The notes: generated by a model not told the origin, from the sequence alone. Counted from the stretch's first letter, positions 1 through 64,000 are shown. The stretch is 64,000 nt of DNA from Candidatus Aenigmatarchaeota archaeon (GCA_038997165.1 JAWBAK010000001.1:61926-125925); one strand, 5' to 3'. Numbers and translations: made by a program.

Positions 1-1
1 A

Positions 2-3000
2 CTAAATTTCCCATTATTTTTTGCTTGTGGTAATTTTTCAACTAAGTTACAAGTTTTTAATAAAGGTAATTTACCTGCTTATAACTTTAGAATAAATGAA
101 ACAAAAAGTGATATACTTAAAACTCATCCTGGAGATTTAATTTTCTACGGTTTTAATCCTTCTAATCCTTATTTAGAACAATCAAAACTAATTAGCTGGG
201 ATGGAGGAATAAATTTCATAGCTACAGGTAAAGATAATGCAATAAACTTTACTTATTCAATTTTTGTACCATATCAAACTAATGGTACTTTTAGTTTTCA
301 AGCCTTAGCACTTAATAATACCTTTAGCTTTTTCGACGAAGAATATATAATTTCAATTTCTTGTGGAGCTTCTTTAAGCATAGACCAAATTAGAATAAGA
401 AAAGGAGAATATCCAGAACCAACTATATATGTTAACGATATTTTTAACATTTCGGCAAACATTTATAATGATGGTCCAGGAAATGCAAGTAATGTAATAG
501 TTTGGATTAATTATACAAATGTAACTCAAATAAGAGGATTAGAAAATTTAAAAATTTATAATTCTAATGGAGAAGAAAGCAATATTATTTATTTAGGAAA
601 TATTTTACCAAAGGAAACAAAAATTGCCTTTAATGACTATTATTTTACAGTAAATACTTCAGGAGTTTCTCCAGGAATAATAAGATTTTGTATTAATGCA
701 AACGCTACTGAAAATTCTACAATAGTTTCTTCTTGCAGAGATATTACAATAAATGCTCCACCAGCATTAATTGAATTAGAAAATCCCATTGCTATTTCAA
801 AAGAAACAGGCTCATCTTTTGGCTCTTGGAGCTTTAATTTTACTTTTAACGTTTCTGTAAGAGTTTCGAATTCAGAAAATGATGTTCAAATATGTGCATG
901 GTTTAGCAAAACTGGAATGGAACCATTTAAACTAATTGGTTGTGATATTTATCCTGCTCCAGGAAATAATATCGGAAGTTGGAGAAATTATTCTTTTGAA
1001 TATTCTCCAAGCTGTGAAGATATTGGTAATCCTGTATTTATTAAGTTTAATGCAACAAACTTTGCAGGATCTTCTAATTCTACAACATTACCATTTACTA
1101 TCACTAAAAGTAAAATAGTATTCGATGAAATTTTAGGAAATAATACAGAAACTAGAAGAGGGAAAATGCCTACAATTCTTGGTGTTAGAGTAAAAGATAT
1201 AAATGGAACTTATATTTCTAACTTACCATTAAGATTTTACGTAAGTTTAAACGAAATTGTTTTTGATGCAGGTAATACAGTTTATACAAATGAAAGTGGT
1301 TATGCAAACTATAACTTTTTAGCAGTTTGTACTCCAAAATACTTAGTTGGATATCAAAAATGGAAAGCTGAATTAAAAGATAACGAATGTTATTTTGATA
1401 ATTCTACAGAAAATTATTTCGATTTAAGAGTTTTAGTAACTGGAGATATTTTACTATATATAGTTAGGCCAGATGGTAGTACAAACTATACTCAAGAAGA
1501 TACTATTACATTCTTAGGTTATGTAACAGATGATTGTGGAGATCCTTTAACGGCAAGCGTTATATTTTTTGCAAATCATAGCATAGAAAGCTTTGAATGT
1601 TCAGATGTAACTCAAGTAGGTTCTAATGCATATACTTGCGATTGGCATACAGAAATTACTACACCAATGGGTTGGTATAATGTTTCTATGTATGTAGAAA
1701 AAGAGTTTCATTATTCGAATTGGAGTATAAAAGCTAAAGATCCAGGACTATTCTATTTAGAACCTATTTATAAATTAGAAGATCCACAAGCATATCCAAT
1801 AAGAGAAGGATGGGGATATAAAAACTGGAATTTTAGTGTATTTGCATCTAGTGGAGATAGTGAAAATGAGTTTGACGTAAATATATATTTAGGAGATTTG
1901 TGGCCACCAGCAAAGCCTTGTGAAGAGTGTATAAATATTACTCCAAAAACATGCTTTAATTGTTATAAGCAATTGGTTGTATTTTTAAGAAATTTCACTG
2001 CATATGAAATAGGTACTTGGTACTATAGATTTTCCTTAGGACCAACATCAACTACTCAAGTTAAATATGTAATAGTTGAAAAAGATGACACAACAATGGA
2101 ATATGTTAGTGGAAATAATTCTATAGTAATAAGAAATTCTCAACCAGCATTACTTTCTGTTAGAGTTTTTGACTTAGATGCAAATACTTATGAATTAAAT
2201 CCGCCTGCATTAGTTACTTTTAAATTATACGATGAAAAATATCCAAATGGATATAAGGTTATTGGAAGTGTTTATACAAATTCTTCTGGATATGCAAATC
2301 TATTGCTAAACATAACAGAATGTACTGGTTGGCTTGAAGGAATTCAAAAATGGAGTGCAGAAATAGATGATAATGATAACTATTACAAAAAATCTTCCAT
2401 AGGAAACTTTACAATAGAAATTCAATTACCAGGATGCCAGCCGCAAGTATATATTTATTCGATAGAATTACCAAAAGAAGCATTTCAATATAAAAATTTC
2501 ACAATAGTAACATATGTTACTTCTTGGGTAGGAGATGCTGAAGGTGTTTATATAAATATTACTTTACCAGATGGTTGGTATACTGATGAGCAAACTAAAT
2601 ATTTGGGAAAAATATATGCTAACGAATTCAAAAAAATTTATTGGAATGTTTATGCTAGTACATTTGGAGAGGGAAAAGCAATTTTCTATATAAACTCAAG
2701 TAATGCTGGTTATAAAAGATTGGAAAGTAATAATATTGTCGTTTATAAATTTTCTCAATCAACAATAAACTCGATAATTAATATTAATAGTAATGATTTT
2801 GAAATTTTAGAATTTGATTGCGAAACTGGTAACTATAGAATTGCAAACTTAACAATAAAAATTTCAGAGAATTCAAATAATTCAACTCTAAAAATTGAAT
2901 CTTTTAACTCTTCTAACTGGATAAAAATTGAAAATAATTTAGAAGTTATTAGCAATAGCTTCTATTTTATTCCAATATTAGCTAATCAAATTTCAAGCAA

Positions 3001-6000
3001 TTCTGATGGAAAATGTTTAGTAAAAATAACAAATGTTGGAGATAAAAATGTAATTATAGAAAGTGCAACCCTTACTTCTTACTATAATGAAACTTTAAAA
3101 ATAGATGGTATAAAAGTTTTAGTTAATAATTTTGAAGTAGAAAGCATAGATAAAACAGAAAGTTCATTTAATATTTCTGTTAGAATAGGAAATTCCTTAG
3201 ATATAAATAAAGATGGTAATTTAACTTTAAAGATTTTGAAAGATGGAAAGGAAATTTATTCGAATTATAAAGAATTTACAATAAATGCAAATAGCTTTAC
3301 TTTTATTAATTTTACTGATATTCAAACAAGCAATTGGGAAGAAGGAATTTATGAAATAATTGCAATACTCAATTCTTCAAACGAAATTAAATTATTAAAA
3401 AGAGAAATAGTTTTTAGTGAAATAAAAATCGATATAACTTCTCCAAAATATCAATGTAATTCTTCAACAGAAAAAATTTATTTAGAAATTTATCAGCCAT
3501 TAGAAGATTATATTTCTTATAACATTTCTTTACAAATTCCAAATAATTGGGATTATAATCCTAAATACATATACTTAGAGCCAAAAGGTAAAGGATTTTA
3601 TTTTGCCGAATTTAATTTAACAGCATTTTCTGAAATTGAAGAAGATTATCAAATAATAATTGTAATTAATTACACTTACGCAAACAATACAAAAAGTTTA
3701 ATTAAACCTATAAACATAAAAGTTTCTCCAAACATTCCAATTTTAGAAATTATAAGAGAATTACCAAGTTTAGTTTCCACATCAATTGTTTTTAAGCCAA
3801 GAATAGTTATTCATAACAAAGGTTGTGGGATTGCTAATAATGTAACTATTAAAGAATATATTTCAGCCGGTTGGATAGGGGCAAACCCAAGCATTGCAAA
3901 GAACGAATATGCTAATGATCCAGAAGTTTCTGATAAAGATGTTGATTTAATTTATTCTGAAACGGACTTAATAAATAATATACTAACTTGGCAATTAAGC
4001 GATATTAAGCCAAATAAATATGCTGTACTAACATATCAAATAAAAGCTCCTCCAACATTATTTACAGCTGGTTACTTAAAGTATAATATAAGCTGGAATA
4101 ATGAATATTATATTGAAGAAAAAATACCATCAAAAGTTTATACATATAGATATCCAGAAGAATCTCATTTAGAATTTGATTTAATTGCTATTCAAACCTT
4201 AGAATATCCATGGCCAGAAGTAAGAAGCATTCAAGTTAATAGAGAATATAACTTTACTTTAAAAGTTACAAATATTGGAGATATAAATACTAATAATGAT
4301 TGGACTATTAAGCTTTATATTCCAAAAGAATGCGAAGTTATTAATGTAGAAAATGGAATATGGAATGAAAGTGAAAGAAAAATAGTTTGGAGTTTACCAA
4401 ATATTTCAACTTATCAAACATCATATTTTAACTTTACTTTGAAATGTAATGAAGAAAAACAATATGTTTTAATTGCTGAAGGAATAAGAGATACTAGAAG
4501 TAAAGTAAGCTTTGAAAATTCTACATCAATTTATTGCGAATCTTATTCAAAACCTGCATATTGTTATTCTAAATTAGATTATATCTTAGCAAAACCAACA
4601 AATGCTAGATATGAAAAATTATCCAATATAACTATTGAGTTTTTGAATAAATATTCTGGAAATAATTTAACAATTGGAAATTCTTACATAAAAATTTTTG
4701 ACGATTTGCTTAATGAGCATATAATATGGCAAGACTATTCTTTCGAAGAGAAAAATGAAATAAAAACAAAGCAGCTAATAATTTATGAAAATCAAGAAAA
4801 TTTTGTTAGTAATATAAAAACTTTTGAAATTAGCTCATATTCTGATGCAACAGAAAATACTTATACTAACATTTCAATACTTAAAATTTATTATACTTGG
4901 GATTTAGGAAAATTGTTTAATGAAACTCAAAACCTATTTATAAAATCTAAGGTTTATGATTATACACCTCTATTCAGAAACGCAAAGCTCTATATTAATG
5001 GTAACGATTCTATAAAAGTTGGAGGCTGGGGAGAAAAATTTGAATTTAGTGTAGAGGTTAGAGATAGATTTGGAAGAGATGTTATAGTTAGAATGTATCA
5101 TAGAAAAGTAGGTGGTGAGTGGAGTTTAGTAGATGAAAAAGTTTGCTATTCTTGCTTAGAATGGACTCAATTTAATTTTAGCTATGATTACGATTATACA
5201 GATATATCAAATTGGGAATTCAAATTTGAAGGAATAAATTCAGATGGTATTAGCGAATATTATGGATTTGTATATACTGTTGAAAAAGATGATGTTGAAT
5301 TAACACCAATTCAACCACAATGGAACGAAACTGTTTTAAGAGCTTATGGATATAACTTTACGATTTACGCTTTCGATATTGATAATAAAACTATTCCATA
5401 TGTTTTGGAAGATTATAAAGCTTTTGTTGCCTTAGGTCAATATGGAAATAACTTAACTTATAAAATATATACATTATCTCCATCAATTAATGAAAGTGGC
5501 TACATAATTTTAAAAGTTACTAATACAGAGTTTTGTAATCCAGCAAACAACTATTATTTAGGTCAAAACTACTGGTTTGGTGGAATTCAAGGATCTGCAT
5601 ATTATAAAGATGTTAATACAAGAATTCCACCATATAATGCATTACCATATGTATTAATAGGAAGCTTATATAATAACATAATTTATCCAATTAATGTTAA
5701 CTTTAGTTTCGAATTAGATACAATTACTTTAAGAGGAGTTGTTTACGACGATTGTGGAAATATAAGAGCTGATGAAGATATGTATGTATATTTCAATTTA
5801 ACTAATGGAGATTATAATTATCAATGCATAGCTACAAGAGTTGGAAATGAATTCCAATGTACATTTAATCCAAGAAGTTTAAATGCACCCTTAGGTTGGT
5901 ATAACATATCTATGTATTCTTCAAAGCCATTACATACAGATGGTATTTATAGTGTAAATAATGCATTCTTCTTAGCAAGCATACCAAAAATAATTAATAT

Positions 6001-9000
6001 ATCTATTAATCCTTTTGGCGGTCCTTGGGGTTTAAGTCCATTTAATTTTAGTGCATACATTATTGATGAAGATGGAAATTTTGTTAATATAACTCATTAT
6101 TTAAGAAAAGTTCCAGAACAATATTTTGTTGCTTATATTGATAATTGCACAAATTGTAATTATTATTTAACTTCTTTCCTTAGAAATTTTGTTTGTGATT
6201 ATGAAAATATTGAAGTTGGAGAATGGAGATATAAAATTGAAACTAAGGATGAAGCTGGTTTTTCAAATACATCTCAAGAAATTTCATTTACAATAGAAAA
6301 AGAACCAATTAATATATCGCTATTTGAAAGCGTTCCGTTAATTAACAGAAGTAATGTACCAAATTCGAAAGCATACAATTTATCGGTTACTATATTCGAT
6401 ACTATTTTAAATAGAAATGTAACAGAAATACCTTTTGTATATTTAAAATTAGAAGGTCCAGCAACTTTTACATATGAAATGGAAAAGGATGAAACTCAAG
6501 AAAAATATTATTATGAATTTCTTCCAGGTTGTAGTTATCCTGTAGGAGAATATAAATGGTATTCTTATGTTTTAAACGATTATTGCTATCAAAATGCAAG
6601 AAGTGAAAATTATACAATAAACATTTATGGAAGCCTTTCTGTTAACATAATTTCTCCAACAGATTATCAGATTATTCCAGAAGGACAAAGTGTAACTATA
6701 AGATCTAATATTATAGATGATTGTGGTGTTTCAATAACCAATGCTAATGTTTATTATATTTTAAGAAATGAAAGAACTCAAGAAGAATTTAGATGTCCAG
6801 AAAGTGGGTTTGCAAATTATGATGGAACTTCTTATGTTTGCAATTTTAATACTAGTGGCAAACCTGGAGGAAATTATACTATAATAGCTTACGCATCAAG
6901 AAATTATTATTGGGATTCCTTAGCTATAAAAGAAAATGCATTCTTTCTAGTAACTCCAGTAAGAATTATAAATGTTACTATGAATTATGAGCATGATGGT
7001 AGCTGGGGTGAAATTCATAATTTTACAGCTCTAATAGATCATTATAATGATGTTATTGTATGTTTATTAGAAAAACCAATAGATGCACAAGAATACCAAG
7101 TTACTGAATGTAAATATGTAGAAAATCCATCTGGAGGAAAAAAAGTAACATTTAATAGAAGATATACATGTTCAAATTTTGTTAGAAGTCAATTCTGGAA
7201 TTATAAAATTAATGCTACAGAGCCAGGAGTACCTTCTTCTTATAGCGAAAGTCAAGAATATCAACATATGCTACAAAAAAATGATTTATCGCTAATAATT
7301 TATTATAACGATTCTGAAGCAAAAAGATATGGAGATCAAAGGGCAAGATTAATAGTATATGCATATGATTTAGATCAAAAACAAGCTGCATATGTTAGTG
7401 CATATAATTCACCAAATATTAAATTTAATGTATATAATGGAAGTTCTTTTGTTTTTGTTGGTGCAAACTCAACAAATTCTTCTGGATATTCGACTCTATT
7501 TTTCAAACCTGATTGTAGCTTTGATGTAGGAATTAAGGAATGGTATGCTTATACAGAGGCTGATGCATGTTATAAAAATGTAATTTCTGATAGATCAAAT
7601 ATTACAATAGTTGGTCTGTTAAATCCATATTTAGTTTCTCCGATTAATGAAGAATATACAAGATATGCTGAACTATACATAAATCTTTCTGCAATTGTTA
7701 AAGATGAATGTAATTTAATTACATTTGAAAATGCCACTGTTACATTTATTGCAAAAAGTGTTGCTTTTGGAAGCGAATACTTATGTTCAGACGTTACTTA
7801 TTCTAATGGTTATTATAATTGTAGCTTAAATGCAACTTTAATAGAGGAAGGTTGGTATAATGTAAACGTTACAGCATCGAACGTTTTATATTATGATGAT
7901 TACTATTATCTTCAAACAAATTCCTTCAAAATAATTCATAGCTTAGTTCCTCCAGTATTAAGCAATGAGTATGCTTATCCTGAGCAAGATGGAGGTTGGG
8001 GAGAAAGATGGTATTTTAGAGTTAATGTTAGTGATTTGAATGGAGACGATGTAAATATTTATCTTTGGATTTCAAGAGATAGAAGCAATTGGGAACTAGT
8101 AAATCAAACTATTTGCTATAATTGTGGATATGAAAGAACCATAGAACTATCTTATAAAGGATTTACATGCGAAGATTATTTAAATCGGCCAATATACTTC
8201 AAATTCAATGCAACAGATGCTTATAATTCAACAGATAGAAATCCCATAGCTTTATATCTTGATAAAAATGATTTAAGAATTGAGTATTATAGTGGAAATG
8301 AAAGCAAAATAATAAGAAATGTTGGTGGAATATTACAAGCTAGAATTTATGATTTAGATTTTGGAGATTATGCAGATTCTCAAGTTGCTCTATACGTAAC
8401 TACTGATAGAAATAATTATAAGCTTGTAGCAATAAATAATTCATTAAATTCTATAGCTACATTATTCTTTAATCCAACATGCGAATTTGATGTTGGTTTG
8501 CAATATTGGAAAATAGGAAGTTATAATGATGCATGCTATAAAAATGTAAACTCAAGCGATTTCAATTTATATGTAATAGGAAATATCGATGCAAACATAA
8601 CTTATCCAAAAGGAGATAAATTCTTAAGAGGCTCTAATGTAACTTTAAATATTTCAATTTTTGATGAATGTTCAGAAAACATTCCACTAGAAAATACAAA
8701 AATAAATATAACGATGATAAGTAATAGAGATAAAAGCATAAGATATTGTACTGAAATAATTGAATTAGGAAATGGATTATACTCCTGTACATTTAATTCT
8801 TCTAACTTCACTCCAAATTATTATAACGTAACTCTAAATATTTCTAAAGAATTATATACGAATAAAACAAAAACATTTTCTAATGTATTTTGGATTGAAA
8901 CAAATCCAATACTATTTAATTTAAGAGCAATTCCAAATGTTTTAGGCTGGGGAGAAACTTTAACAATAAAAGTTAACTTTACTGATGAAGATTTAGATAC

Positions 9001-41514: not shown

Positions 41515-41543
41515 AAAAAAATAAAATAAAGGAAAAAATATTA

Positions 41544-42461: not shown

Positions 42462-42520
42462 AATAAATATTAATGTTAAAAATTGATATATATACTTTTC
42501 GCTTGCCCTTCCTATAAATT
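42462..42520. promoter_or_regulatory. 59-nt divergent intergenic region (probable bidirectional promoter)
   Basis: Divergent start codons at 42461 (minus) and 42521 (plus). AT-rich with several TATA-like runs. No specific element can be pinned down in this composition. Confidence 0.3.
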
Positions 42521-53429: not shown

Positions 53430-53432
53430 GTT

Positions 53433-53954
53433 ATGAAAAAGAGTTATTTAGTAGCACTAATTATTTTAATTTTCTTTATCTTTTTATTTTTTAACTTTTT
53501 TATTATAGAAGAAGAAATAATATTATTTCCAAAATTTGGTAAAGATAGTGATGGTAGTTTAAGCGATGAAATAGTTGAAAATATTAAAAAAGGTTATGAA
53601 AGAGTAATTCTAAAATTTTATCCATATGGTTTTTTAGAGGTTTGGGGTTGGGAAAATCAGTTTTTTGTTAAAAAAATTTTTGCAGTAGTAGAATGGAGAG
53701 CCGATGAAGATTTAGGAGCTGGAAATATATTTATTGGTTATTCGTTAGATGGAAAAAATTACTATGAAATTGGCCCATTCAATGCATCTAATAATTATAC
53801 GAAAACAATAATAGAAATTCCTATTAAAACATTCTCTAACATAGAAAATATAAAGATTAGGTTTAGAGGAGAGGATTTGGATTATGCAATAGATGCATAT
53901 GCAGAAGTTAAAATTTATCTAAAAGTTATAAGGTATAAATTTAGATTATATTAA
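53433..53954 (+). CDS. 173-aa secreted protein that is a single copy of a new ~140-aa domain
   Basis: N-terminal TM/signal LVALIILIFFIFLFFNFFI. Domain landmarks FYPYGFLEVWGW...EDLGAGNIFIGYSLDGKNYYEIGPF...IRFRGEDLDYAIDAYAEVKIY are shared with both domains of the next gene. Confidence 0.7.
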   Translation: MKKSYLVALIILIFFIFLFFNFFIIEEEIILFPKFGKDSDGSLSDEIVENIKKGYERVILKFYPYGFLEVWGWENQFFVKKIFAVVEWRADEDLGAGNIFIGYSLDGKNYYEIGPFNASNNYTKTIIEIPIKTFSNIENIKIRFRGEDLDYAIDAYAEVKIYLKVIRYKFRLY

Positions 53955-56023
53955 TGAGAAAGTTATATAATTCGCTTTTTTTCTTTTTTATCGTAGTTAT
54001 TATAGCAAATATTATACACTCTCCATTATCTGAATTCTTTCCTATGAATTGTATTGATAGTGATGGAGATTGTAATGCAGAAAGAATAAAGTATTTAGAT
54101 AATGAATATGAAACGATTGATTTATTGTATTATCCTTTTGGATATTTAATTGCTAGGGATTTTGAAATAGAAATACCAGACGAAAACGAAATAGATTATG
54201 TAAATATTAGTGTTTTCTGGTATACTGATGTAGGTGAAGGTGCTGGAAATATCTATATAGAATATTCTTTTGATGGAACAAATTGGTATTATTGTTCTGG
54301 ACCATATAGTGAAAGTTCTGAAATAGTTCATTCTTATTGTAGCTTAAGCTCAATATCTAAGGAACAATTGCAAAATCTAATGGTTAGGTTTAGAGGAGAG
54401 GATTTAGATGGATTTCCAATGGCATTTGCTTATATAGATCAAATAAGCCTATATGTACATCATTCTTCTGCTCCAAAATTAAGAAATCAAACTACAAATA
54501 CTACAAATGATTTTATTTACTTTGATCAAGCAATTGAGCTATCTATAGAAGTATTTAGCGATAATGGAATTTCTTGTGTATGGTTATCTACGAACGAGAG
54601 CGGTAATTGGATTAATTATACCGACGGAACATATAATTCTCCAATATGTTTAGATGGTATTTCAAATACTTGGGTAAAGGTTAACTTTACTTGGAAAAAT
54701 TCCTCTGCGATAGGATATGTTGGATGGAAAATTTATGTAAATGACACACTTGGAAAAATAAACGTAAGTGATGAAAAAACTTTTTTTGTTCAATATAGAG
54801 TTTTTCCTATGAATTGTATTGATAGTGATGGAGATTGTAATGTAGAAAGAATAAAGTATTTAGATAATGAATATGAAATGATTGATTTATTGTATTATCC
54901 TTTTGGATATTTAATTGCTAGGGATTTTGAAATAAATTTAAAGGGAAACATTCTTATAAGAGATGCTAGTATTCATGTTTTCTGGTATACTGATGTAGGT
55001 GAAGGTGCTGGAAATATTTATATAGAATATTCTTTTGATGGAACAAATTGGTATTATTGTTCTGGACCATATAGTGAAAGTTCTGAAATAGTTCATTCTT
55101 ATTGTAGCTTAAGCTCAATATCTAAGGAACAATTGCAAAATCTAATGGTTAGGTTTAGAGGAGAGGATTTAGATGGATTTCCGATGGCATTTGCTTATAT
55201 AGATCAAATTTTTGTATCATTTAATTTTTCATACGTTTATTCTTATCTAGAAGTTATTTTAACTTCTCCAAAAACAAACGTAATAAATAATATATTCCAA
55301 AACTCTACATTTTTTGTTAATGTTTCGATTTTTTGTAGAAATGGAAATTGTACTGATGTAAAAGCTGTTATAAGATATAATGAATCGTCTCCATATCCAA
55401 ATACTCCAATTAATGAAACGTATGGAGCAAAGCCGTTTTTCATAGATGAAGAAAATCCTAATTCAATTAAATATTGTGGCAATATGAGTATGGATGAAAA
55501 ATGCGATTTATATTGGATAATAAATGCTAGCGGAAACGTAAAAAGCATTTGGAAAATAGGTGTTTTAGTTTTTTCTTCCGATGGAATTTATAATCATACT
55601 GAAAACGCGACAATAAAAATTATAGGTTGCGTAATAGATGTTACTCTAACTTTTGATAAAATAAGTTTTGGTGATGTTTTACCTAACGTTATTGGAAATC
55701 CTGCCGAAGGGAATAATAATGAAGAGTATAAAATAATAGTAAATCCAGGAAGTTGCTCAATAGATGCATATATTAAAGGTTATGATTTGTACAATGATAC
55801 ATACAATTCTAAAATTCCTGTACAAAATATAAAAGTTAGTAATCAAAGCAATGATTACAGCAGTTCATTTAGTTTGGATTATGAGTTTAAATTATTAATA
55901 AAAAGTTTAGCTCAAAATTCGATTAAGCCAATATTTTTTTGGTTAGATGTACCACCAGTTTTTGCTGGAATTTACTATGGAACCATTACAATAAAAATAG
56001 TTGAAGAAGATGAATTGCCTTAA
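53954..56023 (+). CDS. 689-aa secreted protein: two tandem copies of the same new domain plus a C-terminal Cys-containing beta-rich region
   Basis: Start overlaps the previous stop (taATGa). Domain copies at aa ~30-165 and ~285-420 share (Y/F)YPFGYLIARDFEI...WYTDVGEGAGNIYIEYSFDGTNWYYCSGPY...MVRFRGEDLDGFPMAFAYIDQI. Confidence 0.8.
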   Translation: MRKLYNSLFFFFIVVIIANIIHSPLSEFFPMNCIDSDGDCNAERIKYLDNEYETIDLLYYPFGYLIARDFEIEIPDENEIDYVNISVFWYTDVGEGAGNIYIEYSFDGTNWYYCSGPYSESSEIVHSYCSLSSISKEQLQNLMVRFRGEDLDGFPMAFAYIDQISLYVHHSSAPKLRNQTTNTTNDFIYFDQAIELSIEVFSDNGISCVWLSTNESGNWINYTDGTYNSPICLDGISNTWVKVNFTWKNSSAIGYVGWKIYVNDTLGKINVSDEKTFFVQYRVFPMNCIDSDGDCNVERIKYLDNEYEMIDLLYYPFGYLIARDFEINLKGNILIRDASIHVFWYTDVGEGAGNIYIEYSFDGTNWYYCSGPYSESSEIVHSYCSLSSISKEQLQNLMVRFRGEDLDGFPMAFAYIDQIFVSFNFSYVYSYLEVILTSPKTNVINNIFQNSTFFVNVSIFCRNGNCTDVKAVIRYNESSPYPNTPINETYGAKPFFIDEENPNSIKYCGNMSMDEKCDLYWIINASGNVKSIWKIGVLVFSSDGIYNHTENATIKIIGCVIDVTLTFDKISFGDVLPNVIGNPAEGNNNEEYKIIVNPGSCSIDAYIKGYDLYNDTYNSKIPVQNIKVSNQSNDYSSSFSLDYEFKLLIKSLAQNSIKPIFFWLDVPPVFAGIYYGTITIKIVEEDELP
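54038..54444 (+). repeat. About 407-nt repeat, copy 1 (partner 54803-55209): two near-identical blocks around a ~45-nt divergent core
   Basis: The two copies align nucleotide-for-nucleotide with about 4 mismatches, except for a replaced ~45-nt segment (about 54168-54213 versus 54933-54978). Confidence 0.9.
54803..55209 (+). repeat. About 407-nt repeat, copy 2
   Basis: See copy 1. The offset is 765 nt. Confidence 0.9.
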
Positions 56024-56624
56024 TAAAAAATTGTTTTTTATAATATTTTCTATAATACTGGAGTTTAATATTATATTTTCTCAAATTAATTTCGGAAGTT
56101 ATCAATATGAAAAAATATTAGAAGTTAAAAACGAAACTCTATTAACTTCAAAAATTTTGATTTGGAATTCTGGTAAAAATGATATTGAAGTTGTTTTTGA
56201 AATAATTGAAAAACCGAAAAATGTTGAAGTGTATTTAGATAAAAAAGAGATTATATTAAGCTCTGAGCTAAAAAACGATTACGAAATTTTAATAATAAAT
56301 AATAGAGAGATAAAAGTGCTTCCAGTAAATGTATATTTTTACATTTTAAGTAAAGATGCTAGTGGATATGTTAAAATAAGAGCTTACGCAAAAAGTTTAG
56401 AAAATGCAGAAATACCTATAAGACAAGAAAGAGAATTCCTATTTATAATAAATAAGGTTGAAGATAGTAAAAAAGAAAAAGTAGAAACCAAACTTACTGA
56501 AAAAATAATAGAAAGTGTATCGAATTCTATAAGGGAAAATCCTACAAATATTTTGCCAGTAATAATAATAGTAATTTCTGTTTTAGCTTCGTTAATAATA
56601 CTTAAAAGAAAAAATTCTGAATGA
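56001..56624 (+). CDS. 207-aa secreted protein with C-terminal TM anchor
   Basis: Signal LFFIIFSIILEFNIIFSQ. C-terminus ILPVIIIVISVLASLIILKRKNSE. The start overlaps the upstream gene; an alternative ATG at 56010 is possible. Confidence 0.65.
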   Translation: MKKMNCLNKKLFFIIFSIILEFNIIFSQINFGSYQYEKILEVKNETLLTSKILIWNSGKNDIEVVFEIIEKPKNVEVYLDKKEIILSSELKNDYEILIINNREIKVLPVNVYFYILSKDASGYVKIRAYAKSLENAEIPIRQEREFLFIINKVEDSKKEKVETKLTEKIIESVSNSIRENPTNILPVIIIVISVLASLIILKRKNSE

Positions 56625-56645
56625 TTTACTTAAGTAAATAAATTT

Positions 56646-59315
56646 ATGATAGAAATAATTAAAGCAAAAGATATAAAGAATGATAAAGAAATTCTAAATT
56701 TACTTACTCCTTATTTTAAAAAATGGTTCGAAAAAAAGTTTAAAGGAAAATTAACGTTGCCACAAAAATATTCAATACCATTAATAAAAGAAGGAAAAAA
56801 TGTTCTAATTACTTCTCCAACAGGAAGTGGAAAAACATTAGCATGTTTTGCATCTATATTAGATTATTTATTTAGATTGGCCGAAAAAAATGAATTAGAA
56901 GATAAAGTTTATTGTATTTATGTTTCTCCTTTAAGAGCTTTAGATAATGATATAAAAAAAAATTTAGAAATTCCTTTAAAAGAAGTAAGAGAAATTGCGG
57001 AAAAAGAATTTGGAATAAATTTACAAGAAATAAGAATTTCGATTAGAACTGGAGATACAAAAGCTAGCGAAAAACAAAAGCAATTAAAATATCCGCCACA
57101 TATTCTAATAACTACTCCAGAAACACTAGCAATAATTTTAAACTCTTTAAAATTTAAAGAAAAGCTTAAAGATGTAAAATTTGTAATAGTTGATGAAATT
57201 CACGAATTAGCAAATAATAAGAGAGGTGTTCATTTATCAATAAGCTTAGAAAGATTAGAAAATTTTGTAGGAAAGAAAATTCAGAGAATTGGAATTGGAG
57301 CTACGTTAGAGCCATTAGAAGAGGCAGCGAAATTCTTAGTTGGAAATAATAGAGAATGTATTGTAATAGATGCAAGATTCGTTAAAAATAGCGACATTAA
57401 AGTTTTAATTCCTTCTAAAAATTTAATTTTCGAAAATGCGGAAGAAATAAATAAAAAAATGTATAAATTAATAGATGAATTAGTTGAAAAGCATAGAACT
57501 ACTTTAATATTTACAAATACAAGAAGTGGAGCAGAAAGAGTTCACTTTCATTTAAAACAATTATTTCCATCTAAATATTTAGATGAAATTACTGGAGTAC
57601 ATCATTCTAGTATAAGCAGAGATATAAGATTTGAAGTTGAAGAAAAATTAAAAAATGGAAAATTAAAAGTAGTGGTTTCTAGTACTAGCTTAGAATTGGG
57701 AATTGATATTGGATATATCGATTTAGTAATTCAAATAGGAAGTGCTAAAAGTGTTTCAAGATTAATGCAAAGAATAGGAAGAGCTGGTCATAGCTTGCAT
57801 GCAATTTCAAAAGGAAGAGTTATATGTTTAGATAGAGATGATTTAGTCGAAAATGTTGTAATGGTTGCAATGAGTAAAAAATATTGGTTAGATAAGTTTC
57901 ATATGCCAAAAAATTGTTTAGATGTTTTAGCTCAGCATTTAGTTGGAATGGCTTGCGAAAAAAAGTGGAATATAAACGAAGCATATGAATTAATAAAGAA
58001 AGCATATCCTTTTAAAGATTTAAGTTTTGAAGACTTTATAAATACTTTGAAATATTTAGCTGGTTATTATCATACTTTAGAAGATTATAAAGTTTATGGA
58101 AAAATTTGGCTAGATTTAAATGAAAATAAATTTGGAAGAAAAAAAGCTGCAAGAGTTATATATACATTAAATATAGGAACTATTCCAGAGGAAGTAAAAA
58201 TAAAAGTTAAAACTTTAGATGGAAAATTTTGTGGATATATTGAAGAAGGATTTTTAGAAAGATTAAATGTTGGAGATATATTTGTTTTAGGTGGAAAAAC
58301 TTACGAATTTATTAAAGCTATTAGAGATGTTGCATATGTAAAAGAAGTAAAAGAAAAGAAACCAACAATTCCTAGTTGGTTTAGCGAACAATTACCACTA
58401 AATTTTGATTTAGCAATAGAAATTGGAAAGTTCAGAGAAAAAATGTTTAAAATGTTAGATAAAAAAATTAGTAAGAAAAAAATAATTGAATTCTTAAAAA
58501 AAGAATATTTTTGTGAAGAAGATGTTGCAAATGAAATTTATGATTATTTTGAGTTAGAATATAAATTTCTTAAAAAACATGGAGTAAAAAACTTTCCTTC
58601 ACACAAAGTTATTCTTGTAGAAAGTTTTTTTGATGAAAAAGGTCAAAATATAGTATTTCATACATTGTATGGAAGAAGAGTAAACGATGCACTAAGTAGA
58701 GCATATGCGTATGCACTCTCAAAATATTTAAATAAAAGTATTAAAGTATCTATAAGCGATAATGGATTTATATTAACTATACCTTTTGAAAAATTAGAAA
58801 ATAAATGGTATAAATTATTTGAAATTAAAAAAATTAGAAATGAAAAAGTTAGTTTTGAAGAAATTATTAATTTGGTAAATTCTAAAAATTTAGAAAAATT
58901 AGTAAAAGATTCTTTAAAAAATACTGAATTAATAAAAAGAAAATTTAGGCATGTAGCTTCTAGAAGTTTTATGATTTTAAGAAATTATAAAGGATATGAA
59001 ATTAGCTTAGAAAAACAACAAATGAGTGCAGAAAGATTAATTAAGATTGTACACGAATTAGGTAATGAATTTCCAGTATTAAAAGAAACTTATAGAGAAA
59101 TATTAGAGGATTATATGGATTTACCAAAAGCAAAAGAAATTTTAGAAAAAATAGAAAGTGGAGAAATAGAATTTGAATTTATAGAAAGCGAAGTTCCATC
59201 ACCTTTTGCTCATAATTTAATTGCAATAAGTGAAAGCGATGTAGTTTTGATGGAAGATAGAAGAAAATTAATATTAAAATTATATAAAAAAGTTTTAGAG
59301 AGAATTGGAAGTTAA
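56646..59315 (+). CDS. lhr: Lhr-type (Lhr-core) superfamily-2 DEAH-box helicase, 889 aa
   Basis: Motif I TSPTGSGKTLACF. Motif II VIVDEIHEL (DEIH). FTNTRSGAERV. Motif VI QRIGRAGHS. About 400-aa C-terminal extension with winged-helix-like segments, as in Lhr-core proteins. Non-biased composition compared with its neighbours. Confidence 0.85.
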   Translation: MIEIIKAKDIKNDKEILNLLTPYFKKWFEKKFKGKLTLPQKYSIPLIKEGKNVLITSPTGSGKTLACFASILDYLFRLAEKNELEDKVYCIYVSPLRALDNDIKKNLEIPLKEVREIAEKEFGINLQEIRISIRTGDTKASEKQKQLKYPPHILITTPETLAIILNSLKFKEKLKDVKFVIVDEIHELANNKRGVHLSISLERLENFVGKKIQRIGIGATLEPLEEAAKFLVGNNRECIVIDARFVKNSDIKVLIPSKNLIFENAEEINKKMYKLIDELVEKHRTTLIFTNTRSGAERVHFHLKQLFPSKYLDEITGVHHSSISRDIRFEVEEKLKNGKLKVVVSSTSLELGIDIGYIDLVIQIGSAKSVSRLMQRIGRAGHSLHAISKGRVICLDRDDLVENVVMVAMSKKYWLDKFHMPKNCLDVLAQHLVGMACEKKWNINEAYELIKKAYPFKDLSFEDFINTLKYLAGYYHTLEDYKVYGKIWLDLNENKFGRKKAARVIYTLNIGTIPEEVKIKVKTLDGKFCGYIEEGFLERLNVGDIFVLGGKTYEFIKAIRDVAYVKEVKEKKPTIPSWFSEQLPLNFDLAIEIGKFREKMFKMLDKKISKKKIIEFLKKEYFCEEDVANEIYDYFELEYKFLKKHGVKNFPSHKVILVESFFDEKGQNIVFHTLYGRRVNDALSRAYAYALSKYLNKSIKVSISDNGFILTIPFEKLENKWYKLFEIKKIRNEKVSFEEIINLVNSKNLEKLVKDSLKNTELIKRKFRHVASRSFMILRNYKGYEISLEKQQMSAERLIKIVHELGNEFPVLKETYREILEDYMDLPKAKEILEKIESGEIEFEFIESEVPSPFAHNLIAISESDVVLMEDRRKLILKLYKKVLERIGS

Positions 59316-59344
59316 AAATAAATAAATTTTTTTGAATTTAGTTT

Positions 59345-60502
59345 ATGAAAGGAAAAAAATTGAGTATAATAGTAACTATTCTACTAATTTTTTTAGTATT
59401 TTCAGTAGTTTTAATAACTAATGCTGAAGAGAGAGAAAGAATAAGAAAAATAATAGAAATAAAGGAAATTAAAGAAATTGCTAAAGAAATAAGAAAGGAA
59501 TGTAAAATAGATGCTGATTGTATTGATATATTTTGTCCACAAGCAATAGGAATAGATACACCAAGATGTATAGAAAATAGATGTATTTGTGGTCCAAATC
59601 CAGCTTTGAACTTAACAAAAATAAATGAAACAACAATAAGTTTATGCATTAAATTAAGATTAGAACTAAGAGAAAAAATAAAGGAAATAATTGAAAAAAT
59701 AAAATCTAATAATCTTACTAAAGAGGAAATTGAAAATTTAAATGAAGAAGTAAATAAAATAAGAGAAAGATATAAAGAATGCTTACCTCAACCAATGCCA
59801 ATAAAAGAAGAAGTAATTGGAGCTAAAGTTAGACAAATTGTTCAAAAATATTCTCAAGAAAAAAGAAATTTAACAGAAAGTTTTGTTGAGTCAATTAAAA
59901 ATTTAAATGAAATAAAAATTGATTTAATTTTAAGTGGAAATCTTAGTGGAAAAGAATTAGCAGAAAAAATTAAAGAAATCAATGAAGAAAGAAAAAAAAT
60001 AGTAAAAGATTATGTTGAAAAATTACACGAATTAAATTTAGCTAGAAAAGAAGAATTAAAAGAAGTTATTAAACAAGTTAAAGTTGAAAAAAATGTTAAA
60101 GTTGAAAACGAAATAATAAATGTTAGTAGAGTTATTGTTAAAGTAAACAATAAAGAAATTGAAATTAGACCTGGAGATAACGTTACTATAATTGTAGAAG
60201 GAGTAATAGTAAAATCTAAAGTTCCAATAAGATATGAAAATGAAAGCATTAAAGATGATGAAACAAACAAAACAATAAATGTTACTCCAGAAAAAATTAG
60301 AGAAAAAGTAAGAGAGAGAATAAGAGAAATGCTATTAGAAAGAAAAGGAAATTTAATAATATATAATGTTAATGCAGAAAAAAGTGGAAGAATTTTAGGA
60401 ATATTTCCAGTAAATTTCGAAGTTAGATATGAAATATCAGCAGAAGATGGAAGAGAGATTTCTATAAAAAAGCCTTGGTGGAGCTTTCTAGTAATTGGAT
60501 AA
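59345..60502 (+). CDS. 385-aa membrane-anchored protein: N-terminal TM, small Cys-rich knot, long coiled coil, C-terminal beta-rich domain
   Basis: LSIIVTILLIFLVFSVVLI. The Cys module CKIDADCIDIFCPQAIGIDTPRCIENRCICGP has 7 Cys in 31 aa. K/E-rich heptads at aa ~90-260. Confidence 0.7.
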   Translation: MKGKKLSIIVTILLIFLVFSVVLITNAEERERIRKIIEIKEIKEIAKEIRKECKIDADCIDIFCPQAIGIDTPRCIENRCICGPNPALNLTKINETTISLCIKLRLELREKIKEIIEKIKSNNLTKEEIENLNEEVNKIRERYKECLPQPMPIKEEVIGAKVRQIVQKYSQEKRNLTESFVESIKNLNEIKIDLILSGNLSGKELAEKIKEINEERKKIVKDYVEKLHELNLARKEELKEVIKQVKVEKNVKVENEIINVSRVIVKVNNKEIEIRPGDNVTIIVEGVIVKSKVPIRYENESIKDDETNKTINVTPEKIREKVRERIREMLLERKGNLIIYNVNAEKSGRILGIFPVNFEVRYEISAEDGREISIKKPWWSFLVIG

Positions 60503-60684: not shown

Positions 60685-61722
60685 TTGGGAGAATTTTTAA
60701 GCAACTTTCTTAGATTTGTTTTTGGGTTTTTAGCAGATAGAATTAAAAATTATTGGCTCTTTATTTTTATAGGTTATTTTTTCTTAATTTTTGTTCCACT
60801 AATGTTTTTTGCTAATAGTTGGCAAATAGCAATTTTATTTATAATATTTGAAAGAATAGGAAAAGCTATTAGAAATCCTGCAAGAGATACTATTGTATCT
60901 ATAATTTCGGAAAGAACAAAAAGTATTGGCTTTAATTTCGGAATTATTGAATTTCTCGATCAAATAGGAGCATTAATAGGTCCTATAATTATTGCTATAT
61001 TTTTTCTTTTATATGTAGAAAATGTTATTGATAAATATAAAATAGTATATTTATTTTTGTTTATTCCATTTTTAGTTTTAATTTTTTTACTTTTAGTTAC
61101 ATATTCAAAAACAAAAAATTTAAAAATTAATATTAAAAAATTGAAAGACAAAAATATTCCAAAAATTTTTTGGTATTATAATTTATTTATATTTTTAACT
61201 TCATTGGGATTTATACATTTTGCAATTTTAGGATATCATTTTAAATCAAAAAATATAGCTGAAGATCATCTTATTGTTTTTCTTTATTCTATAGCAATGA
61301 TATTTGATGCAATAATTTCTCCAATTATTGGAAAAATTTATGATAAAATGAAGGAAAAGAAAAAATCTTTTTTTGACTTATTTTTTATTATTCCAATACT
61401 TAGCATTTCTATACCTTTTTTAGTTTTTATTAATAAAATTGAAACAATAGTTCTTAGCATGATATTTTATGGTTTTGTTTTAGGAATGCAAGAAACTATA
61501 ATGAGAGCTGCAATTGCAGATATTACTTCGATTTCAAAAAGAGGCTCTGCATATGGAATTTTTTCATTTGTTCTTGGTATTTCAGCATTTTTTGGTTCGA
61601 CAATAATAGGAATTCTTTATGAAATATCTCTTTTATATCTGTTTATTTTTATTATAACTTCTCAAGTTTTAGCCTTAATGATGCTAATAGCAATTAGAAA
61701 TAGGTTTAAGAATTATTTTTAA
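60685..61722 (+). CDS. MFS-type transporter (intact C-terminal part; annotated start is TTG, N-terminus probably frameshifted)
   Basis: MFS motif A GFLADRIKNYW lies after TM2. About 10 further hydrophobic helices follow. As annotated, the protein would begin inside TM2. Confidence 0.7.
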   Translation: MGEFLSNFLRFVFGFLADRIKNYWLFIFIGYFFLIFVPLMFFANSWQIAILFIIFERIGKAIRNPARDTIVSIISERTKSIGFNFGIIEFLDQIGALIGPIIIAIFFLLYVENVIDKYKIVYLFLFIPFLVLIFLLLVTYSKTKNLKINIKKLKDKNIPKIFWYYNLFIFLTSLGFIHFAILGYHFKSKNIAEDHLIVFLYSIAMIFDAIISPIIGKIYDKMKEKKKSFFDLFFIIPILSISIPFLVFINKIETIVLSMIFYGFVLGMQETIMRAAIADITSISKRGSAYGIFSFVLGISAFFGSTIIGILYEISLLYLFIFIITSQVLALMMLIAIRNRFKNYF

Positions 61723-64000
61723 TATTTTCAAGAAAATTTTTTAAATCATTTTTAACTTTATATAATTTTTCTTTAAGTTTTTCACAATTTCCTTCAAAGA
61801 ATTCATAATAATTTCCATCTTTTATTTTTATCTCTAAATATCCATAAGGTGTTTTCAATTTTTCTATTTCTTCTGAAAAACTATTTATTTTTTGATATTC
61901 AAAATCTATCCCTCTAAAATAAATATTTGAATTTTCAATTTTTAATTCAAATATTGGTGTTTCTAAGGAATAAATTTTAATAGAAGAATTTATAAATTCT
62001 TTTTCTTTTTTGAAATAATTTTCAAATATTTTTAAAATAAAGTTTGAAGAAGAAATTATTCTTTGAATAATAGGAATTTCAAAAATAAATTTTGGTTTAG
62101 TAATATTTATTTCTTTTTCATATTCAATTTCAAAATATTTAATTTTAACTAAATAATTACCTTCTTCTAATTTATAAGAAATTCTTGAAAAACCAAAAAC
62201 CTCTTTTACATCTTTTAATACAGTAAAATTATTTTTTAAGATTTCTATAGAAACATTTCTTGGAAAATCCGAAAAAATTTCTATGTATAAATTAGTATTT
62301 TGAGAATATAAATTTCTTATTTCAAAAGAATTGTCATATTTAATTTCAATTTCAAAATCCTTTAGTAAAATTGTTTTATTATTAATAAATCTTGCCGGAT
62401 ATAAGTTTATATAAATATCTTGAATATCATTAGAATTATTAACTAAAACAATATCATAAAATTTGGAAATGTTTGTTAAAGGAAAATATTCATTAATTTC
62501 TATAATTGAATAATTTATAGAATAATTTTTTAAAGATTTGAATTGAGGTAAGTTAATTTTTTCTTGTAATATATAAAGTAAAGAAATATTATTGTACATA
62601 TTTAAAGTATAAACATCTGTATAGTTACAAACAAAAGTTGTATAATTTGTATTATTAATTTTTAAATTTACTATTGAACATATATCTTTGAAAACTAATT
62701 TAATTTTTGGATTTGAATGAATTAAGTAATTATAATATTCTTTCTTTGACTTATTAATTATTTGAAATGTTTCTCCAATAAAAATTATTGAATTTAACCA
62801 GTCTTCACTATATTTTTTATACTCTTCAGAAAAAATATAAATTAAATGTGCTGGAGTTATTCCAAAAAATTCCGAAATTTTTGAATTCCTTGCTTCTTTT
62901 AGAGATTTTGAAAGAGTAAAATTATAATCTAAAATTTTAGAAAAAATATCTAATGCGTGAGCTGAAGAAATTAAATTTGTATGATTTTTATATCCTAATT
63001 TAGTAAAAGCTTTTAAATATGGTAAAGAGTTTTCAAAATTGTTTAGACTTGCATCAAAAACTATTTCTATAAATTGCAAGTTTGAAATATTAACCTCTTC
63101 TCTATAAGTTTTATTAGTAGGTAATATGTATTTTTCTTTTTCTGTTAAAGTAATAATAAAAAGAATAGAAGTATTATCTAAATATTTTAAAAAATTTGAT
63201 AAATTTAATATTTCTAATACTCTTATTGGATTTGTCTCTATTTCAAAAAGAAGTCTTGATATTAAATTTGAAAATTGAAATAAATTTTTTAAAAATTTTA
63301 TAGCTTCAGAAAAACTTATTTCTTCGTTGGTAGAAATAATTTCCTTAAATATTTCTATTAATTCTTGAATATTTTCATTAGTAAGTCTTTTTTCAGTTAG
63401 TCTTTCTACATTGTATTTATTATACTTTAATTTATCTCTTATTTCTGCTATAAATGGCATAAAGCCTCCCTTAAAGAAAAATTCCTTTATATCACTTTCG
63501 TTTATTATATCTAAATATGTTTGAACAATTAATGCGTTTTTTGTCAAGTTAGCAAGTTTTTTTGCTTCTATTTGTAAACTTATTTCTTCTAATGAGCAGC
63601 AAAGTCTTCTTATAGGAAGATCTTGAAATTTATCATCGTTTAAATCTGCATAAGGATAATCGCTATAAATAATAAGATCTTCTGTAATTTTTATTGGATA
63701 AGAAGGAACTTTAGAAAAATCTCCAACAATTACAATTTCCGGTTCTAATGTTGATAAAAGATTGAGAGATCTTAATTTATCATAAGTTTGTTTAATAATT
63801 GTTTTAATTTCAAATGGGTTCGATGTATTAAGAAATATTGGAAAACAATTATATCTAGAAGAATATGTAATTATCTTTTTCTCTATGTTTGTTTTATCAT
63901 TAAAATTCTTTTCTGATATCAACATACAATCATAGAAATTACGAACATTTGTCTTTACAGTTGTATTTAATATTACTAGATTTCCACCTCTTCCGACATA
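61706..64000 (-). CDS. 739+-aa protein, 5'-partial (minus-strand frame open to the window edge); N-terminal region has a gingipain (peptidase C25)-like motif; no signal peptide seen
   Basis: The ORF track's Met is at 63925, but codons 63926-64000 on the minus strand have no stop (YVGRGGNLVILNTTVKTNVRNFYDC-MLISEK...). Motif PEIVIVGDFSKVPSYPIKITEDLIIYSDYPYADLNDDKFQDLPIRRL resembles the C25 strand-loop, GD...P...SD..Y..D.D...P.GR(l). Catalytic His/Cys could not be placed with confidence. Confidence 0.6.
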   Translation of the reverse strand, partial: YVGRGGNLVILNTTVKTNVRNFYDCMLISEKNFNDKTNIEKKIITYSSRYNCFPIFLNTSNPFEIKTIIKQTYDKLRSLNLLSTLEPEIVIVGDFSKVPSYPIKITEDLIIYSDYPYADLNDDKFQDLPIRRLCCSLEEISLQIEAKKLANLTKNALIVQTYLDIINESDIKEFFFKGGFMPFIAEIRDKLKYNKYNVERLTEKRLTNENIQELIEIFKEIISTNEEISFSEAIKFLKNLFQFSNLISRLLFEIETNPIRVLEILNLSNFLKYLDNTSILFIITLTEKEKYILPTNKTYREEVNISNLQFIEIVFDASLNNFENSLPYLKAFTKLGYKNHTNLISSAHALDIFSKILDYNFTLSKSLKEARNSKISEFFGITPAHLIYIFSEEYKKYSEDWLNSIIFIGETFQIINKSKKEYYNYLIHSNPKIKLVFKDICSIVNLKINNTNYTTFVCNYTDVYTLNMYNNISLLYILQEKINLPQFKSLKNYSINYSIIEINEYFPLTNISKFYDIVLVNNSNDIQDIYINLYPARFINNKTILLKDFEIEIKYDNSFEIRNLYSQNTNLYIEIFSDFPRNVSIEILKNNFTVLKDVKEVFGFSRISYKLEEGNYLVKIKYFEIEYEKEINITKPKFIFEIPIIQRIISSSNFILKIFENYFKKEKEFINSSIKIYSLETPIFELKIENSNIYFRGIDFEYQKINSFSEEIEKLKTPYGYLEIKIKDGNYYEFFEGNCEKLKEKLYKVKNDLKNFLENIKNNS

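Follow-up and report, generated by a model that had tools for sequence, protein, structure and literature searches.

We analysed a stretch of 64,000 nucleotides (nt), hereafter the window, from the Candidatus Aenigmatarchaeota assembly GCA_038997165.1 (JAWBAK010000001.1:61926-125925). The analysis covers this 64-kb window, which holds about 25 genes at a GC content of 17-31%. Its left part is occupied by gene A, which encodes a giant protein with the architecture of the SPEARE proteins of DPANN archaea, followed in the same direction by gene B, gene C and a gene for a MinD-type ATPase. Together with a small gene, p203, these make up the following features (aa, amino acids; HMM, hidden Markov model; Ig, immunoglobulin; MG, macroglobulin; TM, transmembrane; KD, Kyte-Doolittle).

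2-23683 (+): gene A, giant SPEARE-type protein of at least 7,893 aa, open from base 2, with its 5′ end beyond the window
1328-2281 (+): gene A, aa 443-760, a full unit of about 320 aa, the 14th (HMM iteration)
5534-17926 (+): gene A, aa 1845-5975, 13 tandem diverged units of about 320 aa (HMM iteration, alignment A2)
17927-21688 (+): gene A, aa 5976-7229, membrane-proximal ectodomain, phi-x-phi-x-N-x-G-rich beta-sandwiches resembling CARDB, DUF11 and NPCBM_assoc (motif count, weak family matches)
21689-21814 (+): gene A, Gly/Ala/Pro-rich low-complexity linker (AAGAPGIPAPGIGAPGIG...), seen in the sequence, with a period-15 tandem repeat at 21694-21738 (TRF)
22499-22561 (+): gene A, aa 7500-7520, the sole TM helix (KD score 1.48; a long helix in the AlphaFold2 model)
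22562-23683 (+): gene A, HerA/FtsK-superfamily P-loop ATPase and C-terminal helical tail (Pfam, PDB profile search, AlphaFold2 and Foldseek)
23686-24918 (+): gene B, cytoplasmic coiled-coil protein, 410 aa (SMC/Rad50-type coiled-coil matches only)
24915-30641 (+): gene C, sequon-rich surface protein of 1,908 aa with an N-terminal signal/anchor (sequence, sequon count)
30675-31442 (+): MinD-type ATPase 1 (NCBIfam minD_arch, 1.8e-44)
34346-34957 (+): p203, a cytoplasmic protein of 203 aa usually adjoining MinD (no Pfam or NCBIfam match)

The Lhr-type helicase encoded at 56646-59315 (889 aa) has its best matches in metagenome-assembled genomes (MAGs) of Candidatus Aenigmatarchaeota, at 97%, 78% and then 76-70% identity. 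Judged by this helicase and by the ATPase of gene A, the organism is an Aenigmatarchaeota archaeon within DPANN. Scans of the window for tRNAs and Rfam families gave no match.

The frequency of stop codons argues that an open frame of 7,893 codons at 25% GC is not a chance product. Family searches of gene A returned weak Pfam Ig-like matches, with DUF87/HerA at the C-terminus. Its dominant element is the unit of about 320 aa, of which chunked BLAST and HMM iteration recovered 14 complete copies that are 22-38% identical to one another, besides partial copies; an HMM search found the unit in no other protein of the window. The AlphaFold2 model of the unit (pLDDT 91) is all-beta, comprising three sandwich domains of Ig/MG-like fold. 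Searched against the PDB with Foldseek, the model matched the MG domains of complement C5/C3 and alpha-2-macroglobulin best (E = 3e-8), as well as strings of Ig and FN3 domains, and weak Pfam matches to MG2, Big_7 and Big_1 agree with this fold. Past the array lie about 14 more beta-sandwich domains with an N-x-G motif; the pattern phi-x-phi-x-N-x-G occurs seven times in aa 5976-7490, against 1.2 expected. Gene A has 283 N-x-S/T sequons (109 expected from composition-matched shuffles, which serve as the expectation throughout; z = 18), all of them before the TM helix and none after, and homologues have KD scores of 2.0-2.7 at the TM position. These data show gene A to be a type-I membrane protein with an ectodomain of at least 7,500 aa and about 70 Ig/MG-like beta-sandwich domains, presumably N-glycosylated at its sequons. 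No laminin-G, protease or toxin-like domain was detected in the part of gene A that lies within the window. The linker at 21689-21814 is elastin-like; the string of Ig domains precedes it and the last two ectodomains follow it.

The cytoplasmic region of gene A is 373 aa long and has both an intact Walker A (GGTGSGKT, 22736-22765) and an intact Walker B (LLLIYDE, 23114-23140). The catalytic residues K108, D231/E232 and R254/R257 are invariant across 16 homologues (alignment A1). Pfam assigns the region to DUF87/HerA_C, and a PDB profile search found HerA (4d2i, 5e-12), FtsK marginally, and VirB4, VirD4 and TrwB not at all at E ≤ 0.01. The AlphaFold2 model (pLDDT 82) gave the same picture in Foldseek, where ranks 1-16 were all HerA (best 3e-10), followed by TcpA at rank 17, FtsK at rank 24 and VirB4 at rank 29. 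The final ~65 residues are helical, corresponding to helices H347-413 of the model. By sequence, the ATPase is catalytically intact and belongs to the HerA branch of the FtsK-HerA superfamily. It lies outside HerA at the equivalog level, as the NCBIfam models for CedD, HerA, TraD and CedB match at 21-44 bits against cutoffs of 600-970, and there is no NurA-like gene in the window. A role in defence was rejected, PADLOC giving only generic weak HerA matches.

The HerA translocases (Sulfolobus 4d2i, Thermococcus HerA-NurA 9x1l, SIR2-HerA and DUF4297-HerA) thus provide the best sequence and structure match and share the Walker motifs and arginines. They differ from gene A in being soluble, with a HAS-barrel N-terminal domain and nuclease partners, whereas the ATPase of gene A is TM-tethered to a giant ectodomain, has no NurA or SIR2 partner and scores far below the family cutoffs. 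Coupling ATPases of the FtsK, VirD4 and EssC type share the order of TM followed by a cytoplasmic FtsK-HerA ATPase, presumed to be a ring translocase; unlike them, gene A stands in a window without associated channel or relaxase components, and its extracellular part consists of thousands of Ig-like residues.

We scanned one genome per GTDB species for the ATPase and found relatives in at least 586 species genomes; its homologues in DPANN MAGs mostly bear the annotation ‘DUF87 domain-containing protein, partial’. Partners were counted in the best 80 loci of these at least 586 genomes by searching the window proteins against stop-to-stop open reading frames (ORFs) with a 10-kb flank. The taxon labels of the 80 loci, which are the submitters’ names, comprise Aenigmatarchaeota, Micrarchaeota, Nanoarchaeota, Woesearchaeota, Parvarchaeota, Nanohalarchaeota and Altiarchaeota; a single ‘Heimdallarchaeota’ label is probably a binning error. 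The ATPase of a MAG labelled Nanohalarchaeota (L026) is 61% identical to that of gene A. In 41 of the 80 loci, no stop interrupts the ORF containing the ATPase anywhere in the 10-kb upstream flank (at least 3,700 aa), and in another 31 a contig end cuts it. Only eight have an upstream stop, which gives ORFs of 439-2,757 aa; some of these immediately follow a further large ORF that has the same repeats.

In 78 of the 80 loci, the next gene after that for the ATPase is a homologue of gene B, and a gene C homologue, with a conserved length of about 1,950-2,100 aa, is present in 67. Gene C of the window is anchored near its C-terminus (TM at nt 30369-30425, then a cytoplasmic helical tail of 70 aa). 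MinD was found in 27 loci and p203 in 11, many loci ending at contig ends before these genes; in all 11, the p203 homologue (E = 1e-23 to 1e-32) is beside MinD. Even short forms (L002, L003 and L083), in which A measures 727-733 aa and C is a 345-aa protein matching just the last domain, TM and tail of gene C, retain the order A-B-C-MinD. Genes A, B, C and MinD keep their order across many DPANN phyla. Makarova (2014) mentions only generic HerA-like arCOGs (PMC4158269), and we found no description of the A-B-C-MinD partner set in the literature on DPANN DUF87, HerA, MinD and coiled-coil proteins; the conserved set of partners (B, C, MinD and p203) appears to be undescribed so far. At one locus (L001 6081-9860, JGI contig Ga0527077_0545), the stretch that separates the ATPase from a giant ORF of 8,615 aa is broken into five small ORFs, which match the single ORF of gene A in the same order; this reflects either a frameshift or assembly error or a truly split gene.

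SPEARE proteins of Nanohaloarchaeota, up to 8,553 aa long, lie mostly outside the cytoplasm, with a TM close to the C-terminus and a cytoplasmic part that is conserved; one is expressed in Ca. Nanohaloarchaeum antarcticus according to proteomics, and sequences resembling the cytoplasmic part were reported from Woesearchaeota, Aenigmarchaeota, Micrarchaeota and Altiarchaeales (Hamm et al. 2019, PMC6642349). The layout given by Reva et al. (2023, PMC10266531) runs from a signal peptide and an Ig domain through two PQQ-like propellers and about 75 Ig-like domains to a TM, an ATPase and a coiled-coil tip. Gene A shares with these proteins the size class (5,998-9,409 aa), the extracytoplasmic tandem Ig-like domains, the single C-terminal TM, the cytoplasmic P-loop (DUF87) ATPase with a helical, coiled-coil tip, and a DPANN host genome. 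It has SPEARE architecture in every part visible in the window, a likeness that is one of architecture and not of direct alignment. There are also differences: the ATPase of gene A is closest to HerA and not to VirB4/TraG, the only PQQ-type propeller of the window is on a separate protein of 2,542 aa (45801-53429) and not on the visible part of gene A, and the window proteins are encoded at low GC and are not acidic or halophilic.

We consider it probable that this part of an Aenigmatarchaeota chromosome encodes a cell-surface apparatus of SPEARE type. As our gene assignments show, the cluster here has further members, namely coiled-coil proteins, a regulator resembling TrmB, small anchored proteins that accompany a second MinD, and a variable block whose products are secreted. 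Several points weigh against such an apparatus. Ten homologue accessions were looked up, none of which is among those cited for SPEARE (NAR1_1133, AOV94740.1 and SVXNc_0300), and because the N-terminus of gene A lies beyond the window, its signal peptide and any N-terminal propeller or laminin-G domain are out of view. The reported downstream neighbour of the giant gene in cultured nanohaloarchaea is a second, VirB4/TraG-like ATPase (PMC10266531) and not, as here, a coiled-coil protein, so the partner set may differ in those organisms. The oligomeric state, substrate and host contact of gene A are all things that we infer, and MinD and the coiled-coil proteins may instead belong to the cell-division machinery. 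Lastly, a SHOCT-like motif common to B and C in the window is not broadly conserved: 9 of 72 homologues of B have it and 2 of 35 homologues of C, and it was rejected as a general B-C interaction module.

HerA/FtsK-superfamily ATPases act as ring translocases, and MinD/ParA-type ATPases position other large membrane assemblies. By analogy with its HerA/FtsK relatives, the ATPase of gene A would oligomerise as a ring, probably a hexamer, under the membrane, and this ring would bundle several giant glycosylated ectodomains into a host-binding fibre hundreds of nanometres long. ATP hydrolysis might then remodel the fibre or, where the cells touch, drive the movement of a DNA or protein polymer. 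Gene B, the tail of gene C and the other coiled-coil proteins could form a cytoplasmic scaffold, with MinD positioning the assembly, and duplication, gene conversion and replacement would generate diversity in the distal ectodomain repeats and accessory surface genes, leaving the motor and its partners conserved. A broader proposal, which we put forward tentatively, is that A-B-C-MinD encodes one pan-DPANN, ATP-driven envelope machine (a HerA-like motor ring tethered to giant glycosylated Ig-fibres, with a coiled-coil scaffold and MinD positioning) that may act as a general organelle for host attachment and material transfer, distinct from type IV pili and bacterial secretion systems.

The remaining genes, mostly to the right of this cluster, are as follows.

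31660-34214 (+): two long coiled-coil proteins of 633 and 218 aa, GC about 17-20% (family matches)
34963-38100 (+): coiled-coil protein of 1,045 aa with an internal 300-nt duplication (repeat search)
38101-38684 (-): TrmB/ArsR-like winged-helix regulator of 127 aa, and a 60-aa ORF at 38502-38684 (family search)
38687-42461 (-): second module, encoding MinD-type ATPase 2 (40789-41514) between an anchored protein of 706 aa and a secreted one of 305 aa
42521-45738: four small signal-bearing or anchored proteins of 290, 172 and 222 aa (+) and 408 aa (-); sister orthologues 44-60% identical
45801-56624 (+): variable block, with a 2,542-aa secreted protein, then proteins of 173, 689 and 207 aa
59345-60502 (+): N-terminally anchored, sequon-rich protein of 385 aa (10 sequons, 1.9 expected)
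61706-64000 (-): sequon-rich ORF of at least 764 aa leaving the window, with no family match and no N-terminal signal within the window

A preliminary description of the window, made from the sequence alone, had counted at least 14 secreted or anchored proteins among 26 genes. Our count agrees, with 13 ORFs that have a signal/anchor and/or a C-terminal TM (the giant, 24915-30641, 38687-40807, 41544-42461, 42521-43393, 43390-43908, 43878-44546, 44512-45738, 45801-53429, 53433-53954, 53954-56023, 56001-56624 and 59345-60502), a major facilitator superfamily transporter, and the ORF at 61706-64000 (-). Secreted and anchored proteins take up about 75-78% of the bases of the window. The dense sequons it had pointed to are enriched 2-3.4-fold in the large surface proteins, which besides gene A include 24915-30641 (83 observed, 25 expected; z = 14), 45801-53429 (84 and 37), 53954-56023 (21 and 8) and 61706-64000 (25 and 9.9); the cytoplasmic proteins of the window show no enrichment over shuffles. 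A C-terminal TM with a K/R-rich tail and no PGF is borne out at 38687-40807, 42521-43393, 44512-45738 and 56001-56624. The tripeptide precedes the TM at none of the C-termini read, which places these proteins outside the PGF-CTERM/archaeosortase class. Overlapping start/stop junctions between genes were likewise seen, and of the intragenic recombination there is a record in recent duplications within three genes.

The genomic background was judged from proxies, namely L084 (housekeeping genes of a relative), L004/L087 (a contig of the sister species) and the strain fragments L086 and L089. The 22-kb housekeeping region of L084, the relative with a 78% identical Lhr, has no comparable surface-gene content; there, Lhr lies among housekeeping genes, sequons are not enriched and GC is 26%. 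Measured against these proxy regions, the concentration of surface genes is local and real, and the density of about 75% is not genome-wide. The locus is densely packed with cell-surface genes and belongs to a lineage that is probably episymbiotic; the Lhr helicase and the ATPase place it in DPANN.

The preliminary description took the window for a hypervariable, strain-specific surface island that arose by expansion of one CARDB-like NxGxxxA family, which we regard as unlikely. The density of surface genes with enriched sequons, the mosaic intragenic duplications and the variable block at 45.8-56.5 kb all favour it, as does a relaxed N-x-G beta-sandwich motif in nine surface proteins with weak DUF11, CARDB and NPCBM_assoc matches. 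In its strict form, NxGxxx[AT], the motif said to mark almost all surface proteins is confined to four, with 8, 2, 1 and 1 occurrences, a frequency close to chance; for the giant, the counts are 8 against 4.8 expected for NxGxxx[AT] and 6 against 1.9 for NxGxxxA. The relaxed form, phi-x-phi-x-N-x-G, occurs 30 times in the secreted set (12.7 expected) and not once in the cytoplasmic proteins, and is concentrated in aa 5976-7490 of the giant and in gene C, with single copies in five small anchored proteins, among them p290 and p408 with one such domain each. CARDB, DUF11 and NPCBM_assoc (PF07705, PF01345 and PF10633) form one E-set-type clan. No whole protein of the window matched Pfam CARDB at E ≤ 0.01. 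Of 18 motif-centred segments, three matched DUF11 (best 4.9e-6), two NPCBM_assoc and two CARDB at E ≤ 1 (best 1.3e-3). The strand-turn motif and these weak profile matches are thus what some domains have in common with CARDB, DUF11 and NPCBM_assoc, whereas the main repeat of gene A is the MG/Ig-like unit of about 320 aa, restricted to that one gene. Similarity between proteins is limited to the pairs giant/24915-30641, 45801-53429/53954-56023 and 53433-53954/53954-56023. A single expanded family does not fit these results: ‘CARDB-like’ is a loose description for a minority of domains, and not the founding family of the window. The key feature, a HerA-like ATPase ending the giant ORF, with its MinD/ParA and coiled-coil partners, was missed.

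The expectation of hypervariability holds for only one part of the window. On the contig JAWAZZ010000003.1 of a sister species (L004, L087), the genes follow the same order as in the window, starting with the giant gene and ending with 43878-44546, and the core gene order is kept across DPANN phyla. Identities to this species are 89% for the ATPase, 81% for MinD1, 75% for MinD2, 86% for the TrmB-like regulator and 73% for p203. Among the large surface proteins they are 51-76% for the giant ectodomain (lowest distally; 70% over 3,750 aa of the gene A orthologue in L004) and 67% for gene C, falling to 38-60% for the small ones. The second module is also collinear, with the 706-aa and 305-aa proteins both at 40%, and the coiled-coil proteins stand at 68% (B), 48% (633 aa), 31% (218 aa) and 32% (the third). 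Surface and coiled-coil genes thus evolve faster than the cytoplasmic enzymes. For the 305-aa secreted protein, a word-indexed search detected three homologues.

Past 44.5 kb, the place of the window proteins of 2,542, 173 and 689 aa is taken in the sister species by a single protein of 1,236 aa, and further on that species carries PilC/PilB-like genes in place of Lhr. JAWBIC010000037.1 (L086) is 95.7% identical to the window at the nucleotide level over 56531-59846 and has unrelated secreted-protein genes to the left of about 56531. A strain fragment is 98.6% identical over 40429-43574, a near-identity that also speaks against a strain-specific island. Comparison of synteny across relatives therefore leaves 45801-56530 as the variable stretch: only 45.8-56.5 kb, replaced in relatives, behaves like a variable island. 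Positions 1-44.5 kb form a conserved locus for an apparatus whose ectodomains evolve fast, and the left half of the window is of a kind conserved in DPANN, not an island specific to one strain. The sharp synteny breakpoint at about 56531 falls inside the C-terminal anchor of 56001-56624.

The recent duplications are in gene C (27178-27400 and 27841-28063, 100% identical), in ORF 53954-56023 (54038-54444 and 54803-55209, 97-98%) and in the 1,045-aa coiled-coil gene (35812-36111 and 37378-37677, 84%). The copies 54038-54444 and 54803-55209 differ mainly at 54170-54210, with EIPDENEIDYVNISV in place of NLKGNILIRDASIHV, and the wider gene C copies (27097-27400 and 27760-28063) differ mainly at 27144-27177 (IFSVNPPGKETYLG and FIVSANHNETKNIG). 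Each of these two pairs therefore has one fully replaced patch of 34-41 nt (12-15 aa). This pattern suggests recent duplication or gene conversion around a variable loop. A diversity-generating retroelement was considered and rejected, with no reverse transcriptase family match in the window and repeat mismatches that are not adenine-specific.

A type IV secretion system (T4SS)-like ‘straw’ has been proposed for proteins of the same architecture, with a ‘VirB4/TraG-like’ ATPase that pumps effectors into the host, either through or along the giant (Reva et al. 2023, PMC10266531). Foldseek does list VirB4 (4ag6), TcpA and FtsK as structural relatives (E about 1e-6 to 1e-7), and NCBIfam models for TraD, TraB, TraC, CedB and CedD match weakly over the Walker A region. 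Set against this are the closest relatives in sequence and structure, which are HerA and not VirB4 or VirD4, and a string of Ig-like domains that gives no obvious conduit. Pfam and NCBIfam scans detected no other T4SS component family among the window proteins, and we think a secretion straw improbable at this locus.

An apparatus of SPEARE type also differs from the giant Ig-repeat adhesins (Embp, and Giant1-5 of Apilactobacillus; PMC9302970, PMC12863079). These have similarly long arrays of diverged beta-sandwiches, clustered giant genes and variation in repeat number, but are wall-anchored or secreted and have no cytoplasmic motor domain.

Somewhat less credible still is a housekeeping locus for envelope and cytoskeleton, in which A and C would be wall or S-layer-like proteins, MinD and the coiled coils would serve division or shape, and no host would be involved. 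The very broad DPANN conservation, the conserved length of gene C, the assignment to MinD_arch and the Crescentin/SMC-like coiled-coil signals can all be read in this way. It offers no structural rationale for fusing a translocase-type cytoplasmic ATPase to a wall protein, and it sits poorly with an ectodomain that is fast-evolving, variable in repeat number and reduced in forms as short as 727 aa. Moreover, going by the labels of the best 80 loci, the family appears confined to host-dependent DPANN lineages.

That the FtsK/HerA-like and ParA-like ATPases and a winged helix-turn-helix protein belong to an integrated mobile or conjugative element for DNA transfer and partition is very unlikely: this mix of genes resembles archaeal conjugative plasmids and Ced DNA import (weak CedD, CedB and TraB matches), but synteny on the chromosome holds across phyla, NCBIfam scores the ParA-like proteins as archaeal MinD, and family, tRNA and repeat scans of the window turned up neither an integrase, relaxase or replication gene nor a tRNA target or flanking repeats. 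With a GC content typical of the lineage (26% in the related L084) and no mobility genes, nothing points to a foreign origin.

SPEARE proteins are leading candidates for DPANN host attachment and uptake of host material, and have been studied only in Nanohaloarchaeota. The locus is an Aenigmatarchaeota example of this already known kind; what it adds is the DPANN-wide conservation of the fusion and its partners, and the HerA-like motor. The fusion of a giant ectodomain to a HerA-like ATPase is the rule in hundreds of DPANN species and is accompanied by a fixed partner set (a coiled-coil protein, an anchored protein of about 1,950 aa, MinD and a small conserved protein), with a motor nearer to HerA than to VirB4. 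A-B-C-MinD thereby gives structural and genetic work a concrete multi-gene target, and the current labels ‘restriction endonuclease’ or ‘T4SS’ call for caution.

Several smaller observations concern the other genes. The two MinD paralogues (30675-31442 and 40789-41514) are 31% identical, each stands beside a different set of surface genes, and both are kept in the sister species. The three coiled-coil genes within 31660-38100 have an extremely low GC content of 17-20%. The 60-aa ORF at 38502-38684 (-) lies between the gene for the 706-aa protein and the TrmB-like gene, and a 60-aa gene occupies the same place in L087 and L088. Several Aenigmatarchaeota Lhr helicases (P0027-P0029, P0037, P0057, P0060 and others) are about 1,400 aa long and contain an intein with LAGLIDADG (PF14890, PF14528), from which the Lhr of the window is free. 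In the relative with a 70% identical Lhr, a signal-bearing protein of 2,693 aa lies beside that gene (L085 3-8084) and, in contrast to the large surface proteins of the window, has no excess of sequons (49 against 48 expected). The window has no type IV pilus-like genes; in L084 (1-1978), a T2SSE/PilB-like gene is near Lhr, and in L087 (1-2302), a T2SSE/PilB-like gene and two T2SSF/PilC-like genes adjoin the surface-gene block. Within the variable block, the 2,542-aa protein (45801-53429) contains its PQQ/FG-GAP beta-propeller at nt 50838-51920 (Pfam Beta-prop_ACSF4, 3.7e-66), and the 173-aa protein (53433-53954) consists of one copy of a domain that occurs twice within 53954-56023; it is 34% identical to that domain, whose two copies are 72% identical to each other.

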